From a virus, in the UHGV virus genome UHGV-2009075: a stretch of 32,075 nt of DNA; one strand, 5' to 3'. Shown here piece by piece: positions 2,573 to 31,110 of the stretch. How positions within the stretch are numbered: position 1 is the stretch's first letter; each line of letters begins with the position of its first letter. Made by a program: the position numbers and the translations under genes. The notes beneath the pieces are model-generated. The model searched no databases, had not been told where the DNA came from, and saw only the letters and a list, made by a program, of their open reading frames with translations.

Positions 2573-3655
2573 TTAGAACTGGTAAACCATACCTACAGCA
2601 ACGATATCATCGGTAGCAACGCCAGATGCTTTCGTGAAATCGCTCTTATCAATCAGGTTGATTTTGTAGTCAACAAAAGTGGACATATTTTTGTTGAAGT
2701 AATAGGTTGCACCTACATCAACATATTCAACCAGGTCCTGATCACCCCAAACACCCAAGTCTTTTCCTTTAGAATGCAGGTAAGCAACGGATGGACGCAG
2801 GCCGAAGTCGAACTGATATTGTGCAACAGCTTCGAAGTTTTGTGCTTTGTTGGCAATATGGTTATTACCAAAAACAGTCATGTTCTGGGTTTCAGAATAG
2901 GTGGTGGCCAGATAGATGTTGTTCGCATCATATTTCAGACCAGCTGCCCATACTTCAGCATTTTGACCAGAAGCATTCAGACCGTTGTTACCGTAGATAA
3001 CCTGATTATTAGTGCGATCAGATTTAGCATAGGTTGCACCCACGCCGAATCCTTCATACTCATAAGTAGTTGAGAAACCGAAACCATCGCCATTAGCTTC
3101 AGTTACTTCATTTCGGTCATTTTTGCCCTGATACTGAGCTGCAAAGTTCAGGCCATCAACCAGACCAAAGAAGTCGTTGTTACGATAAGTTGCAACACCT
3201 GTGGTGCGACCAGTCATGAATACATCTGTTTGGGTCCAGGTATCGCCACCGAATTCTGGCAGAACGTCGGTCCATGCACCAATATCGTATGCTACACCGT
3301 AGTTACGGCCATAATCGATGGAGCCGTAGTCACCGAATTTCAGGCCAGCGAAGGCAAGACGGGTTTTATCTTTGGAGGAACCTTGAGATTCAGCGCGGTT
3401 GCCTTTGAATTCATATTCCCACTGACCGAAACCAGTCAGTTGATCGTTGATTTGGGTTTCACCTTTGAAGCCAAGACGGGCATAAGTAGTATCACCATCA
3501 TCTGCATCATTAGAGGAGAAGTAGTGCTTAGCATTAACTTTCCCGTACAGATCCAGCTTGTTACTGTCTTTATTATAAATTTCAGCTGCCTGAGCAGACA
3601 TCGCCATCAGTACTGATGCAGCTACAGCAGAAATTGCCACTGTTAATTTTTTCAT
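2573..3655 (-). CDS. nmpC: Outer-membrane general porin, OmpC/OmpF superfamily, NmpC/Lc (phage-encoded) type, with signal peptide
   Basis: 360-aa product with signal peptide [30 protein letters not shown] and C-terminal beta-barrel signature ...VAVGMVYQF; ATG confirmed at 3653-3655 on the reverse strand. Closely resembles remembered NmpC. Confidence 0.85.
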
Positions 3656-4083
3656 CGTGAGCCCTTTTTTTTGAACTATTATTAAAAAATGATGTCACTG
3701 CGCGATAAATATTCATCTAATCAATGTGATTATTTCAAGATGTAAGTTTTGGTTTCTCGTTTAATTTGTGAAGTAGATCTCTATTTTTATCTGAACTTTT
3801 TTCTATCGAATCCTATTCATGGCTCTTGGCTGAATAAAAATAAATCTATTAGCCAATTTATATTAATGGCTGTTATTTATAAGTGCTCTATAATTTGAAG
3901 GTTCAATTTAAATTGGCTAAAAATAACGCTGGAAATTATTTGTTGGTTATTTGTTGAGATTTGCTTATGTATTTGTAGTGGTGTTTTCAATACTCGGTAG
4001 CATTCTCGCAAATATCATTTAGTGGTTTACGTACGTAAAAAATTGGTTATGCTGTTAAGAGTGGTTACTTCGTCACACAGCGT

Positions 4084-4116: not shown

Positions 4117-4228
4117 GAGTCTCGATATTAGCTGATAACCCAATACCTGAGTTATTCACTGACTCCGAGTCTGTTACGTTTCGTAGTATTCCCTCAATTT
4201 ACACCCGCTTTGTCTGCGAGGTGGGGTT

Positions 4229-4444
4229 ATGAAATCCATGGATAAGTTAACAACGGGTGTCGCCTATGGCACCTCAGCAGGTAGTGCCGGGTACTGGTTT
4301 TTACAGCTGCTCGATAAAGTCACGCCCTCACAGTGGGCAGCAATAGGTGTGCTGGGTAGCCTGGTATTTGGCCTGCTGACGTACCTGACAAACCTTTATT
4401 TCAAGATTAAAGAAGATAAGCGCAAGGCTGCGAGAGGTGAATAA
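4229..4444 (+). CDS. Class II holin (phage 21 S-type pinholin) with dual-start motif
   Basis: 71-aa product [26 protein letters not shown] ... resembles remembered S21/EssD. Met1-Lys-Ser-Met4 is the classic antiholin/holin dual start; two predicted TM segments. Confidence 0.85.
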
Positions 4445-4941: not shown

Positions 4942-5396
4942 GCAGAGTAACCGCGATTATCTCCGCTCTGGTTATCTGCATCATCGTCTGCCTGTCATTG
5001 GCTGTTAATCATTACCGTGATAACGCAATCGCCTACAAAGAGCAGCGCGATAACAAGGCCAGTGAACTGGAGAAGGCGAACGCCACCATCGCTGACATGC
5101 GGAAGCGTCAACGTGATGTAGCAGAACTCGACGCAAGATACACAAAGGAGCTTGCTGATGCTAACGCGACTATCGAAAGTCTCCGTGCTGATGTTTCTGC
5201 TGGGCGTAAGCGCCTGCAAGTCGCCGCCACCTGTGCAAAGTCAACGACCGGAGCCAGCGGCATGGGCGATGGAGAAAGCCCAGGACTTACAGCAGATGCT
5301 GAACTCAATTATTACCGTCTCCGAAGTGGAATCGACAAGATAACCGCGCAGGTTAACTACCTGCAGGAATACATCAGGACGCAATGCCTGAAATAA
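4938..5396 (+). CDS. Rz i-spanin (inner-membrane spanin subunit)
   Basis: ATG at 4938 overlapping the endolysin stop (ATGA); N-terminal TM helix then coiled-coil-rich periplasmic domain. Track start at 4926 is a GTG extension. Confidence 0.8.
5158..5343 (+). CDS. Rz1 o-spanin (outer-membrane lipoprotein) embedded in the +1 frame of Rz
   Basis: ORF wholly inside Rz; from ATG 5158 the product [20 protein letters not shown] has a lipobox-like VSAC at residues 17-20 followed by a Pro-rich segment. Track start at 5152 is TTG. Confidence 0.65.
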
Positions 5397-5427
5397 TTTT
5401 TTTGCAAATCACAAAGTCCATTTAATG

Positions 5428-5457
5428 AGCCTCGCGATGCGGGGCTTTTTTTACATC
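5428..5457 (+). terminator. Intrinsic terminator downstream of Rz/Rz1
   Basis: Stem gcctcgc/gcggggc (one G-U pair) with loop gat, followed by a run of T. Confidence 0.6.
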
Positions 5458-5601
5458 TGAATTTCACAGCGCATCTCACGCGCATATTACATCACCCGAG
5501 CCTTTCAGAAAGTTGAGCCTGAGAACTGCCGTATATGGTGGCGACCATCTCGGGGCGGCTTTTCTGTGAGACAGGCTCACTTTCTAAAAGGTAAAGACGC
5601 T

Positions 5602-6090
5602 ATGAACCAATTAGAAGAAAAGCTTCAAAGAATGATTTCCTTATACAAGGAAGATAACTGCCAAAAAGTTCCTGAAAACATCGCAGAGTTAATGGAATTG
5701 GCAAGTGAATTTTCTGGCATGCTTAAGTCGTCAGGTGTTCGGTCAGCGTTCTTTGTTGAAATGCTGATGCACGGCGGACTTATGGCAACAATGAGACGTG
5801 TAATGGAAGACCAGAGAAAAGAACCTCCTCAGGTATACGTTTTGTCATCGAAGAAAACTGGGCTAACCAAAATTGGGTATTCATCCAACATTCCACAACG
5901 CATCAAATCGCTTGGCAACTCTGGACCAGACTGCTTGAAGCTTGAGTGCCTGATCCCTGGTGGAAGAGAAACTGAAAACATGCTTCATCGCAAATTTGCC
6001 GCAAAGAGAAAGCACGGTGAATGGTTCGCCCTGTCCAAGGATGACATTGAGGGATTGAAATCTGTAGCGATTACTTCTGATGGCTATTAA
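5602..6090 (+). CDS. Protein with C-terminal T5orf172 (MUG113-like, GIY-YIG superfamily) domain; function unknown, AT-rich moron
   Basis: C-terminal segment VYVLSSKKTGLTKIGYSSNIPQRIKSLGNSGP ... ECLIPGGRETENMLHRKFAAKRKHGEWFAL fits my recollection of the T5orf172 motif pattern. ATG 5602 preferred over the track's GTG 5566; start not certain. Domain assignment unverified. Confidence 0.6.
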   Translation: MNQLEEKLQRMISLYKEDNCQKVPENIAELMELASEFSGMLKSSGVRSAFFVEMLMHGGLMATMRRVMEDQRKEPPQVYVLSSKKTGLTKIGYSSNIPQRIKSLGNSGPDCLKLECLIPGGRETENMLHRKFAAKRKHGEWFALSKDDIEGLKSVAITSDGY

Positions 6091-6768
6091 TGCTTGTTTA
6101 GAGCAATTTTCATAACAACTCTTCATTACAAAGCCCATCTACTGGTGGGCTTGATAATGAAACCGTGATTTACATCCCCACAATCCGGGTATGTAAAAGA
6201 TAGTTCAGGCGAGAACGGATTTAACTAAATCTGTGCGCCACCAGTTAACGGCAGTACCACGAAACAACCCAAGCCAGTAAGTGGGGAAATAACACCGGCA
6301 GCCACTGAAAGATGAACCTCCTGCCTTATGGCAAAAAAGATTCTTTGTGGTGGCGGACTGATGGAAAGACATCCTAATTTCAGCCAAACATTGAAGGAGT
6401 TGTTATGTCAGCAGAAGGTTTCAATAACCCATCAAAATTCCGGGATGAGTGGGATAGCAGCGTAAAGAGTAAGTGATGCCATCACAAAAGCCATTCCCTA
6501 CAGAGTGGCTTTGATAATGGCTTATACCCTACACGGGATAACTTAACTGATATCCCTTTTAAAGGATAAAGGTATTCAAGCCTGACACATCATGCGCTGT
6601 ATCGTCGCCGTATTCCCGTATTAACAGAGACCGTAGCCCGACGGGGAACTCCTTCTGCGCGAGTGTGCGGGAATAATCAAAAACGATGCACACCGGGGTT
6701 ACCGGGTACACATATTTCATCATGCCAGCGAGTCCGGTTCTGGCACGGAAGAAACCGGACGTTATGAT

Positions 6769-7179
6769 TTAGTGCGGAAATATTTGTGTAGTGTTCTGAA
6801 TGTTCTCAGTAAAGAGTAATGAATTATCAAAGGTATAGTAATACCTTTTGTTTTCGTGGATATTTGTAATCCATCTGAAAACCCCTGCTGTAGCAAGATT
6901 TTTCCTGTATTCGTAAAATGATAACTCTCCTGATTTGAATCCTTTTAATGTGGCTTCTATAAGGCATTTATTTTTTGAAAATCTTACATTTACAACCTTA
7001 CCCTGTCCTTTTATTAAAACCGTATTATCGTTTTCAAGAACAAGATGAATATTCTCTGTGGCTAAATAGTAAATGTAATGTGAGACATTGTGACGTTTTA
7101 GTTCAGAATAAAACCAGTGATAGTTTAAATTATTTCGCACTTTATCGAATATTTGTTTAAAAATGGCAACCTGAGCCAT
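6769..7179 (-). CDS. YbcV-like (DUF1398-type) lambdoid accessory protein, function unknown
   Basis: AT-rich ORF; two in-frame ATGs (7194 and 7179), the second preceded by GGAAGG at good spacing. Product [51 protein letters not shown] ... resembles what I recall of DLP12 YbcV. Confidence 0.6.
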
Positions 7180-7236
7180 TGTAGTACCTTCCATGTGATA
7201 TGAAGGTACCTAGTCTGCACGATTATCTAAATTGCT

Positions 7237-7470
7237 TCAATCTGGTCTGACCTGCTTTCTGAGCAATTCAGTAATGTCACTCTTTTCTTTGTTTGCTTCA
7301 GGCGAAACTCTTTTTTCTGAGCACAGTCTTCGGCGGCAGGCTTCAATGACCCAGGCTGAGAAATTCCCGGACCCTTTTTGATCAAGAGCGATGTTAATTT
7401 GTTCAATCATTTGGTTAGGAAAGCGGATGTTGCGGGTTGTTGTTCTGCGGGTTCTGTTCTTCGTTGACAT
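7237..7470 (-). CDS. Small ribbon-helix-helix-like DNA-binding protein
   Basis: 77-aa product; RNIRFPNQMIEQINIALDQKGSGNFSAWVIEACRRRL has the alternating beta-strand plus two-helix pattern of RHH (CopG/Arc) proteins. Sits immediately upstream of the YbcV-like gene on the same strand. Confidence 0.6.
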   Translation of the reverse strand: MSTKNRTRRTTTRNIRFPNQMIEQINIALDQKGSGNFSAWVIEACRRRLCSEKRVSPEANKEKSDITELLRKQVRPD

Positions 7471-7669
7471 GAGGTTGTCCCGTATTCAGTGTCGCTGATT
7501 TGTATTGTCTGAAGTTGTTTTTACGTTAAGTTGATGCAGATCAATTAATATGATACCTGCGTCATAATTGATTATTTGACGTGGTTTGATGGCGTAGATG
7601 CACGTTGTGACATGCAGATGATAATTATTATCATTTTGCGGGTCCTTTCCGGCGATCCGACAGGTTACG

Positions 7670-7681
7670 GGGCGGCGACCT
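7670..7681 (+). other. cosN cohesive-end sequence (12-nt GGGCGGCGACCT) of the lambda-type cos site; cosQ lies upstream and cosB (terminase small-subunit and IHF sites) between here and Nu1
   Basis: Exact GGGCGGCGACCT preceded by ...GATCCGACAGGTTACG, matching the remembered lambda genome ends; Nu1 begins about 190 bp downstream as in lambda. Confidence 0.8.
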
Positions 7682-7858
7682 CGCGGGTTTTTGCTATTTA
7701 TGAAAATTTTCCGGTTTAAGGTGTTTCCGTTCTTCTTCGTCGTAACTTAATGTTTTTATTTAAAATACCCCCTGAAAAGAAAGGAAACGACAGGTGCTGA
7801 AAACGAGCTTTTGGGCCTTTGTCGTTTCCTTTCTCTGTTTTTGGCCGTGGAATGAACA

Positions 7859-8378
7859 ATGGAAGTCAACAAAAAGCAGCTGGCTGACATTTTCGGTGCG
7901 AGTATCCGTACCATTCAGAACTGGCAGGAACAGGGAATGCCCGTTCTGCGAGGCGGTGGCAAGGGTAATGAGGTGCTTTATGACTCTGCCGCCGTCATAA
8001 AATGGTATGCCGAAAGGGATGCTGAAATTGAGAACGAAAAGCTGCGCCGGGAGGTTGAAGAACTGCGGCAGGCCAGCGAGGCAGATCTCCAGCCAGGGAC
8101 TATTGAGTACGAACGCCATCGACTTACGCGTGCGCAGGCCGACGCACAGGAACTGAAGAATGCCAGAGACTCCGCTGAAGTGGTGGAAACCGCATTCTGT
8201 ACTTTCGTGTTGTCGCGGATCGCAGGTGAAATTGCCAGTATTCTCGACGGGATCCCCCTGTCGGTGCAGCGGCGTTTTCCGGAACTGGAAAACCGACATG
8301 TTGATTTCCTGAAACGGGATATCATCAAAGCCATGAACAAAGCAGCCGCGCTGGATGAACTGATACCGGGGTTGCTGA

Positions 8379-30526: not shown

Positions 30527-31110
30527 TGGCATTCAGAATGAGTGAACAACCACGGACCATAAAAATTTATAATCTGCTGGCCGGAACTAATGAATTTATT
30601 GGTGAAGGTGACGCATATATTCCGCCTCATACAGGTCTGCCAGCAAACAGTACCGATATTGCACCGCCAGATATTCCGGCAGGCTTCGTGGCTGTTTTCA
30701 ACAGTGATGAGGCATCGTGGCATCTCGTTGAAGATCATCGGGGTAAAACGGTTTATGACGTGGCTTCCGGCGACGCGTTATTTATTTCTGAACTCGGTCC
30801 GTTACCGGAAAATGTTACCTGGTTATCGCCGGAAGGGGAGTTTCAGAAGTGGAACGGCACAGCCTGGGTGAAGGATACGGAAGCAGAAAAACTGTTCCGG
30901 ATCCGGGAGGCGGAAGAAACAAAAAACAACCTGATGCAGGTAGTCAGTGAGCATATTGCGCCGCTTCAGGATGCTGCAGATCTGGAAATTGCAACGGAGG
31001 AAGAAATCTCATTGCTGGAAGCCTGGAAAAAATATCGGGTGTTGCTGAACCGTGTTGATACATCAACTGCACCTGATATTGAGTGGCCTACGAACCCTGT
31101 CAGGGAGTAA
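30526..31110 (+). CDS. tfa: Tail fibre assembly chaperone Tfa
   Basis: 194-aa product [59 protein letters not shown] ... as lambda Tfa; ATG overlaps the stf stop. Confidence 0.9.
30947..31026 (+). repeat. Direct repeat copy 1 (tfa 3' segment); copy 2 at 31996-32075, about 88% identical over about 80 bp
   Basis: gagcatattgcgccgcttcaggatgctgcagatctggaaattgcaacggaggaagaaatctcattgctggaagcctgg versus gagtatattgcgccactgcaggatgctgtagatctggaaatcgcaacggaggaagaaagatcgttgctggaagcctga, aligned by eye. Confidence 0.8.

Follow-up and report, generated by a model that had tools for sequence, protein, structure and literature searches.

The 162-codon gene at positions 5602-6090 (+) of a lambdoid prophage encodes an uncharacterised small subfamily of a known and very large nuclease-like family, and it is preceded by a leader RNA that is a more novel element than the gene itself. 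Sequence comparison places both in the rha slot of phi80, P22 and HK620-type phages, where alternative genes share a single leader and a single start codon. The leader and its cassette slot are of greater interest than the gene, and possibly undescribed. The gene is contained in a stretch of 32,075 nt, the virus genome UHGV-2009075 (hereafter the window), which is a DLP12/lambda-like prophage identical to E. coli 214-4 across the stretch that was tested.

The gene lies directly 3' of the Rz/Rz1 spanin gene and ahead of Nu1/terminase. Leading up to it the order is quuD, an OmpC-like porin gene (-), essD, rrrD and Rz; past it come the DUF1398 and YlcI genes (-), followed by nohD/Nu1 and terminase. 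The DUF1398 (141 aa) and YlcI/YnfO-like (77 aa) genes, at 6769-7470 (-), adjoin Nu1, and GC in the DUF1398 part falls to 0.31, the lowest value of this region. The 162-aa product is RefSeq WP_016245257.1, a 'GIY-YIG nuclease family protein', and corresponds to gp64 of phage HK106 and to PHROG 4284, which is annotated as 'unknown function'. A BLAST search with positions 5400-6200 found the full gene in HK106 and, among 5,426 complete E. coli genomes, in 80; a scan of species-representative genomes returned one locus.

The open reading frame claimed by a first-pass annotation is intact, running from the ATG at 5602 to the stop codon at 6088-6090. It had been asked whether it might be a fragment of a larger, disrupted gene; it is not, since full-length relatives of 160-163 aa exist at 35-98% identity. 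Against an orthologue of 87% identity, dN/dS is 0.12 for the whole gene; taken separately, the N-terminal part gives 0.18 and the C-terminal domain 0.09, values which indicate that both halves of the protein are under purifying selection. The gene had also been called AT-rich, which is true only in a mild sense, its GC content being 0.42-0.46 where that of the lysis genes is 0.50-0.53. The ATG at 5602 is taken as the start codon because homology among the slot alleles stops right after it. The GTG at 5566, which would give a protein of 174 aa and from whose equivalent codon phi80 rha is annotated, was rejected, since indels in the E. coli W leader separate the two codons by a stop. The phi80 rha annotation begins 12 codons upstream of the common ATG. 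A public 224-aa version of the protein (P0001) is 100% identical across the 162 aa, and its start call is over-extended, as the window has a stop codon upstream of 5566.

The remark that the gene has no partner holds for the window, where it stands alone; in Klebsiella, an Endonuclease_NS gene overlaps the stop codon of an orthologue. This orthologue, in a Klebsiella variicola prophage (L130, 5001-6187), is 74% identical and has a GTG start; the Endonuclease_NS (PF01223) gene encodes 232 aa, overlaps the stop codon by 4 nt and is not found in the window. It may be a partner, or it may be a neighbouring moron.

The C-terminal half of the protein carries a T5orf172/MUG113 domain (aa 78-151; 5833-6054, +), which models as a GIY-YIG fold. 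The pattern had been noticed by eye and was borne out by a Pfam profile search, in which both families scored above their gathering thresholds: MUG113 (PF13455) over aa 90-151 (E=6e-15, 56 bits against a cutoff of 22.3) and T5orf172 (PF10544) over aa 78-150 (E=2.8e-10, 41 bits against a cutoff of 20). The same families were matched by 16 of 16 diverse relatives. The canonical Pfam GIY-YIG profile (PF01541) scored 12.5 bits, under its threshold of 22.6, an NCBIfam search with the 162-aa protein returned nothing, and an hhalign comparison with an approximate I-TevI sequence gave no useful alignment. The predicted structure of the C-terminal half has a beta-beta-alpha-beta-alpha core, and its top structural matches are GIY-YIG nucleases; SLX1 chains are among the best of these and show the highest sequence identities (18-19%). 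Membership of the C-terminal half in the GIY-YIG superfamily is thus supported by the model.

The residues Y79, K90-I91-G92, R100, E125, L128, H129 and E140-W141-F142 are invariant in a set of 16 full-length relatives whose identity reaches down to 24%. Y79, R100 and E125 would correspond to the catalytic positions of GIY-YIG enzymes, an equivalence drawn from the Pfam alignment of aa 77-104 to GIY-YIG positions 3-30 and from the order of secondary-structure elements, not from a residue-level superposition. The second Tyr, that of the YIG motif, is absent, and K90-I91-G92 stands in its place, as in other T5orf172 proteins. In Odn, a T5orf172 nuclease, an Arg and a Glu are described as conserved catalytic residues, and the substitution E180A abolishes activity (PMC8263062). 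The T5orf172 domain is found in 38,241 representative clusters at E<=0.001, of which only about a dozen share the N-terminal part of the present protein.

This N-terminal part (aa 1-75; 5602-5826, +) is predicted to form a bundle of three long helices. It had been reported as unrecognisable and proved to be so, with no match in Pfam, NCBIfam or PDB sequences. It is acidic and contains no invariant residue. A profile search with aa 1-75 alone returned only fragments of the same gene, and by sequence the domain is restricted to this T5orf172-gene family, with no detectable relatives outside it. Comparison with DNA-binding domains in Pfam, in the PDB and at the level of fold likewise gave no match, the domain resembling a generic acidic bundle. 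Judging from the model, the bundle probably serves in oligomerisation or in binding a partner protein.

The gene had been placed in the position of lambda bor. It is indeed the first gene after Rz, as bor is in lambda, but there is no homology between this locus and bor: in lambda that gene is on the opposite (-) strand, 31 nt past Rz, and a model of the leader found no match in lambda even with filters off. The approximately 180 nt before the ATG recur, by BLAST with 5400-6200, ahead of Rha and KilA-N genes in phi80, HK620, Sf101, CUS-3, Stx phages and P22-like Salmonella phages. The loci of phi80, HK620, HK106 and E. coli W can be aligned, the leader in each ending at the common ATG, after Rz and before the packaging genes, and the gene contexts given in the annotations are consistent with this.

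A comparison of this locus across lambdoid prophages, as the first-pass annotation had recommended, found about ten genes alternating behind one leader and ATG. A leader pattern search of IMG/VR matched at least 120 contigs, and in 109 of those listed there is a complete ORF of at least 100 aa starting from the shared ATG. Among the matches listed, the most frequent occupant is Rha with ORF11CD3 (at least 67 loci), followed by KilA-N types (at least 14) and the present T5orf172 protein (at least 12). A Rha-only protein of 228 aa occurs in at least five loci, a second T5orf172 type, that of E. coli W, which is about 30% identical, in at least four, a protein of 198 aa with no known function in at least four, and ANT/KilAC in at least two; an HNH_3 endonuclease with an AP2-like tail was recognised by eye in at least one. 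In all, two unknown proteins are reckoned among the occupants in these matches. In Klebsiella and other hosts, orthologues of 49-87% identity likewise follow the lysis genes, and a relative of 35% identity is located elsewhere, in a phage-like cluster.

On the 3' side of the gene there is a strong 16-bp stem-loop without a U tract (6122-6161, +; fold -22.2 kcal/mol, z = -6.4). The sequence from 6124 on is a 3' boundary common to many slot alleles and lies 1-2 nt past the rha stop codon. Other alleles lack the hairpin and join straight to 6239 or 6249, and because the boundary varies in this way, integron-like site-specific cassette exchange between two bracketing hairpins was rejected. At one locus (L055, 3799-3916) the slot is apparently empty, the 5' half of the leader being joined to the equivalent of window position 6243 onward; at another (L075) the T5orf172 ORF is broken after about codon 88. 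Just past the cassette, in a module at 6239-6373, lies a 26-aa hydrophobic ORF (6225-6305, -; MAAGVISPLTGLGCFVVLPLTGGAQI) with a GTG start and an AGGAGG sequence 10 nt upstream. The stretch is conserved at 93-99% across most related loci and carries no annotation in RefSeq; its product could be a small membrane peptide, a toxin, or nothing.

Upstream of the gene, a terminator scan identified an intrinsic terminator after Rz (5427-5454, +), consisting of a 9-bp GC-rich stem at 5427-5447 followed by a T run; the curated records of HK106 and phi80 annotate a terminator at the equivalent place. Next in the MFE fold is a GCGC-N7-GCGC hairpin or palindrome (5469-5487, +), a motif present in every leader variant, even the divergent L127 and L130, and then a long imperfect hairpin of 93 nt and about 34 bp (5500-5592, +), with an MFE of -44.3 kcal/mol (z = -4.1). 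The Shine-Dalgarno (SD) sequence AAAGG (5587-5591, +), 10 nt before the ATG, is paired in this hairpin with CCUUU at 5501-5505. In the MFE structures of 43 of the 48 distinct leader variants, at least four of the five SD bases are paired.

Compensatory changes in the aligned sequences strongly back the 5500-5592 hairpin. In a covariance alignment of 35 copies taken from diverse phages, paired cells make up 91.4%, compared with 44-50% when the partners are slid, and 28 of the 34 pairs change on both sides; none of 500 shuffles reached the observed values, which are to be read with the caveat that the alignment was fitted to the structure of the model and that many rows are related. The covariance model, of which the GCGC-N7-GCGC element is no part, takes in divergent and second copies, and it found divergent copies including those ahead of the 49-87% identical orthologues. 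It replaced an alignment of the 48 leader variants with MAFFT and RNAalifold, which had returned no covarying pairs, a result ascribed to an invariant core and to misalignment of the divergent group. A search of Rfam gave no match at E<=1 within 5200-8000, and no description of the leader was found in the literature. The sole Rfam family in the window at gathering scores is IS009, matched at full length at 30869-31067 (+) with 220 bits against a gathering threshold of 117.

The gene had been said to have a terminator-bounded leader. The first of the two terminators, at 5427-5447 with its T run, stands; the second (5528-5565) is the apex of the 5500-5592 hairpin. In the common variants this apex is followed by UUUUCU, whereas divergent copies no longer have the U tract, yet compensatory changes have preserved their pairing, that of the SD included. 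It is therefore the SD-sequestering hairpin that is conserved, and not a terminator. This bears on the suggestion that the inverted repeat of the leader acts as DNA, as a plain terminator or as a mere recombination linker, with no part as a regulatory RNA. The reverse strand folds nearly as well (-41.5 kcal/mol, z = -4.7), the leader element coincides with mosaic boundaries, and in the common variants UUUUCU follows the apex. However, there are 106 G-U cells to 25 A-C cells, and the score of the covariance model is 129 bits on the + strand but 26 bits on the - strand, both of which point to an RNA of the sense strand. Together with the retention of SD pairing in copies that have lost the U tract, this makes the suggestion unlikely.

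Second, divergent copies of the leader are found in the same phages, ahead of other genes. In phi80 (L003) the second copy, at 4173-4275, precedes gp49; elsewhere such copies precede an HNH_3/AP2 endonuclease (L173, 623-741), a KilA-N gene (L072, 341-444, -), a 141-aa ORF (L006, 8526-8625) and an HNH fragment (L037, 11112-11228, -).

The proposal that the gene is a moron is made doubtful by the finding of no promoter and by the burial of the SD in a conserved hairpin. A scan of 5300-6400 for sigma-70-like promoters returned none, where 1.7 would be expected by chance, although a weak or non-sigma-70 promoter could escape such a consensus scan; the curated phi80 and HK106 records annotate no promoter at the slot. 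A by-eye candidate, TTCACA-16-TATTAC, is weak and is not conserved among the leader variants. As to the other marks of a moron, the 3' hairpin at 6122-6161 is strong and has no U tract, and the GC content is only about 6 points lower than that of the neighbours. Elsewhere in the window, an OmpC/NmpC-like porin gene (2573-3655, -; flanks 3600-4050) lies between the Q antiterminator and the lysis genes, which is a classical moron position, and adjoins very AT-rich DNA (GC 0.29-0.30).

Given the lack of a promoter, the buried SD and a position past the Rz terminator on the strand of the late operon, expression most likely takes place by Q-dependent read-through of the late operon. Q-modified RNA polymerase would read through the Rz terminator, such that the gene would be transcribed only in lytic growth. 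The 93-nt hairpin would then hide the SD against the upstream CCUUU and keep translation low or conditional, and its release might come about by RNase III cleavage, by a trans-acting factor or by breathing of the helix. Gating at the level of translation is plausible in that the products of the slot are perhaps harmful: the annotation of phi80 Rha makes it an inhibitor of DNA synthesis in hosts deficient in IHF. A possible IHF site at 5601-5613, with one mismatch, was considered on account of this link between Rha and IHF and was rejected as being at chance level (23 matches against 22 expected).

About 40 viral contigs, on different backbones, share the ORF at 98-100% identity. Where the backbone is unlike that of the window, identity declines with distance from the ORF, being 90-97% in the hairpin, 76-88% farther upstream and 61-92% at the 3' end of Rz. 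From the sequences, this decay fits recent transfer by recombination in conserved flanks. Alleles of rha also occur with several leader variants, and as they are equally promiscuous, the pattern alone gives no proof of nuclease-driven spread. The slot is polymorphic, but its alternates are other genes, with the one empty site described above. A homing-like reading is suggested by the presence of both T5orf172 and HNH/AP2 proteins in the slot, these being the two homing-endonuclease families described near terminase genes in ICP1-like phages (PMC10448857). It is weakened by the lack of a DNA-binding module: the sequence-specific module expected of a homing endonuclease was not found in aa 1-75, and 87% of T5orf172 homing endonucleases carry zinc-finger modules (PMC10448857).

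The reading favoured here, at just short of an even chance, is that the protein is a late-expressed, tightly gated DNA endonuclease serving in inter-phage competition or homing-like spread. It would cut the DNA of competing elements, such as satellites or related phages that are co-resident or co-infecting; alternatively it would cut alleles without the gene and spread by recombination in the flanks, like a free-standing homing endonuclease. This endonuclease reading is supported by the Pfam scores, the structural matches to GIY-YIG nucleases, the invariance of Y79, R100 and E125 and the low dN/dS. It is weakened by the acidic N-terminal bundle and the lack of a recognisable DNA-binding domain, and the spread of the gene can be explained without nuclease drive, as ordinary mosaic recombination suffices.

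It is conceivable, though on balance doubtful, that the protein is instead a non-catalytic DNA-binding or regulatory protein which does the same job as its Rha, KilA-N and ANT alternates, using the fold for binding only. Its task would be to modulate replication, late development or the repressor of a resident prophage. The slot, leader and start codon are indeed held in common with Rha, KilA-N and ANT, and the annotated activity of phi80 Rha as an inhibitor of DNA synthesis in IHF-deficient hosts fits such a task. The T5orf172 domain was first predicted as a DNA-binding module, a prediction made by association, as it turns up together with Bro-N and KilA-N; at least one relative, CapR, has been described as a domesticated relative of such endonucleases with a regulatory role. 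However, an invariant Tyr, Arg and Glu under strong purifying selection would be needless for mere binding, and since HNH/AP2 endonucleases also occupy the slot, its occupants are not all regulators.

Two further proposals fare less well. The protein might be a defence moron expressed in the lysogen, a prophage nuclease that excludes superinfecting phages and takes the ecological place of bor. PADLOC does report a partial match to the candidate PDC-S57 (E=7e-6), but this aligns aa 73-146 with only profile positions 3-83 of 212, in a different architecture, and there is no full-length match to any PADLOC defence-system protein. No promoter was found for expression in the lysogen, two hairpins separate the gene from any transcription upstream, the SD is sequestered, the orientation is that of the late operon, and the alternates in the slot are late-region phage regulators and not defence genes; the proposal is thus very unlikely. 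It is also highly improbable that the protein is an SLX1-like structure-specific endonuclease that trims branched intermediates before packaging, in the manner of T4 endonuclease VII or T7 endonuclease I. The prominence of SLX1 among the structural matches would suit such a role, which would need no sequence-specific DNA-binding domain, and a gene just upstream of the packaging genes would be made late. Yet the gene is dispensable, as most phages hold a non-nuclease in the slot, the prophage of the window already encodes RusA, and the gene accompanies lambda-type, P22-type and other packaging systems alike. A packaging co-factor like gp74 of HK97 is unlikely as well, the gene being replaceable and associated with several unrelated packaging systems.

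The nearest parallels to the protein are found among phage-borne T5orf172 nucleases. ICP1 Odn (Gp88) likewise ends in a T5orf172 domain that has the conserved Arg and Glu and whose first helix lacks the His/Tyr (PMC8263062), and the T5orf172 homing family of ICP1-like and T5-like phages is likewise phage-borne, near terminase and at a boundary of genetic exchange (PMC10448857). In contrast, Odn has a RepA_N-like DNA-binding domain and most of its family have zinc fingers, whereas the present protein, described from sequence and model, has a 75-aa acidic bundle and belongs to a temperate lambdoid phage. The free-standing GIY-YIG enzymes of T4 (I-TevI, Seg) similarly have a DNA-binding domain joined by a linker, which the present protein lacks, and unlike the sites of the T4 homing genes, the rha slot has other genes as its alternate alleles and not an empty site.

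The rha genes of phi80 and P22 share the slot, the leader, the start position and often the 3' boundary hairpin with the T5orf172 gene, but the Rha protein (Phage_pRha with ORF11CD3) is unrelated: its DNA-binding domain is Bro-N-like, and it lacks a nuclease fold. Lambda bor and DLP12 borD are, like the present gene, non-essential accessory genes placed first after Rz/Rz1. The bor gene, however, is on the opposite strand, and its product is an outer-membrane protein, said to give the host serum resistance, with no relation in sequence or structure to the T5orf172 protein; bor is reported to be one of the genes that the lysogen expresses (PMC7067206). For the leader, a parallel exists in the IsrK-orf45-anrP leader of Gifsy-1, also a prophage leader with a terminator, whose read-through transcript is rendered translationally inactive by its structure; both leaders control an antirepressor-like accessory protein (PMC4825925). 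The Gifsy-1 leader differs in lying between Q and the lysis genes, in having its own promoter and in having a short form that acts in trans (PMC4825925). It has no sequence or Rfam relation to the leader described here.

Taken further, it is possible, and is proposed only tentatively, that the hairpin leader represents an undescribed cis-regulatory RNA family which gates swappable, probably toxic accessory genes of the late region, with the T5orf172 protein as a nuclease that has no DNA-binding domain and is recruited through its three-helix domain. The genes served by such a gate would be two nuclease families, Rha, KilA-N and ANT, in lambdoid and P22-like phages, sometimes with two leaders per genome. 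Release would be triggered by a specific signal, such as processing by RNase III, a factor from phage or host, or a terminated short form that works in trans, and the T5orf172 nuclease would be aimed, for example, at satellites or rival prophages during induction.

If the hairpin is a mere recombination linker and the protein is inert, the locus is a case of ordinary mosaicism. The locus raises the questions of how toxic accessory genes are kept silent yet deployable, and of whether the nuclease alleles drive their own spread. Learning what a T5orf172 protein that lacks a DNA-binding domain does in a temperate coliphage would aid the annotation of thousands of phage genes, and a single structured leader that serves both regulators and nucleases provides a tractable system in E. 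coli, with HK106, phi80 and HK620.
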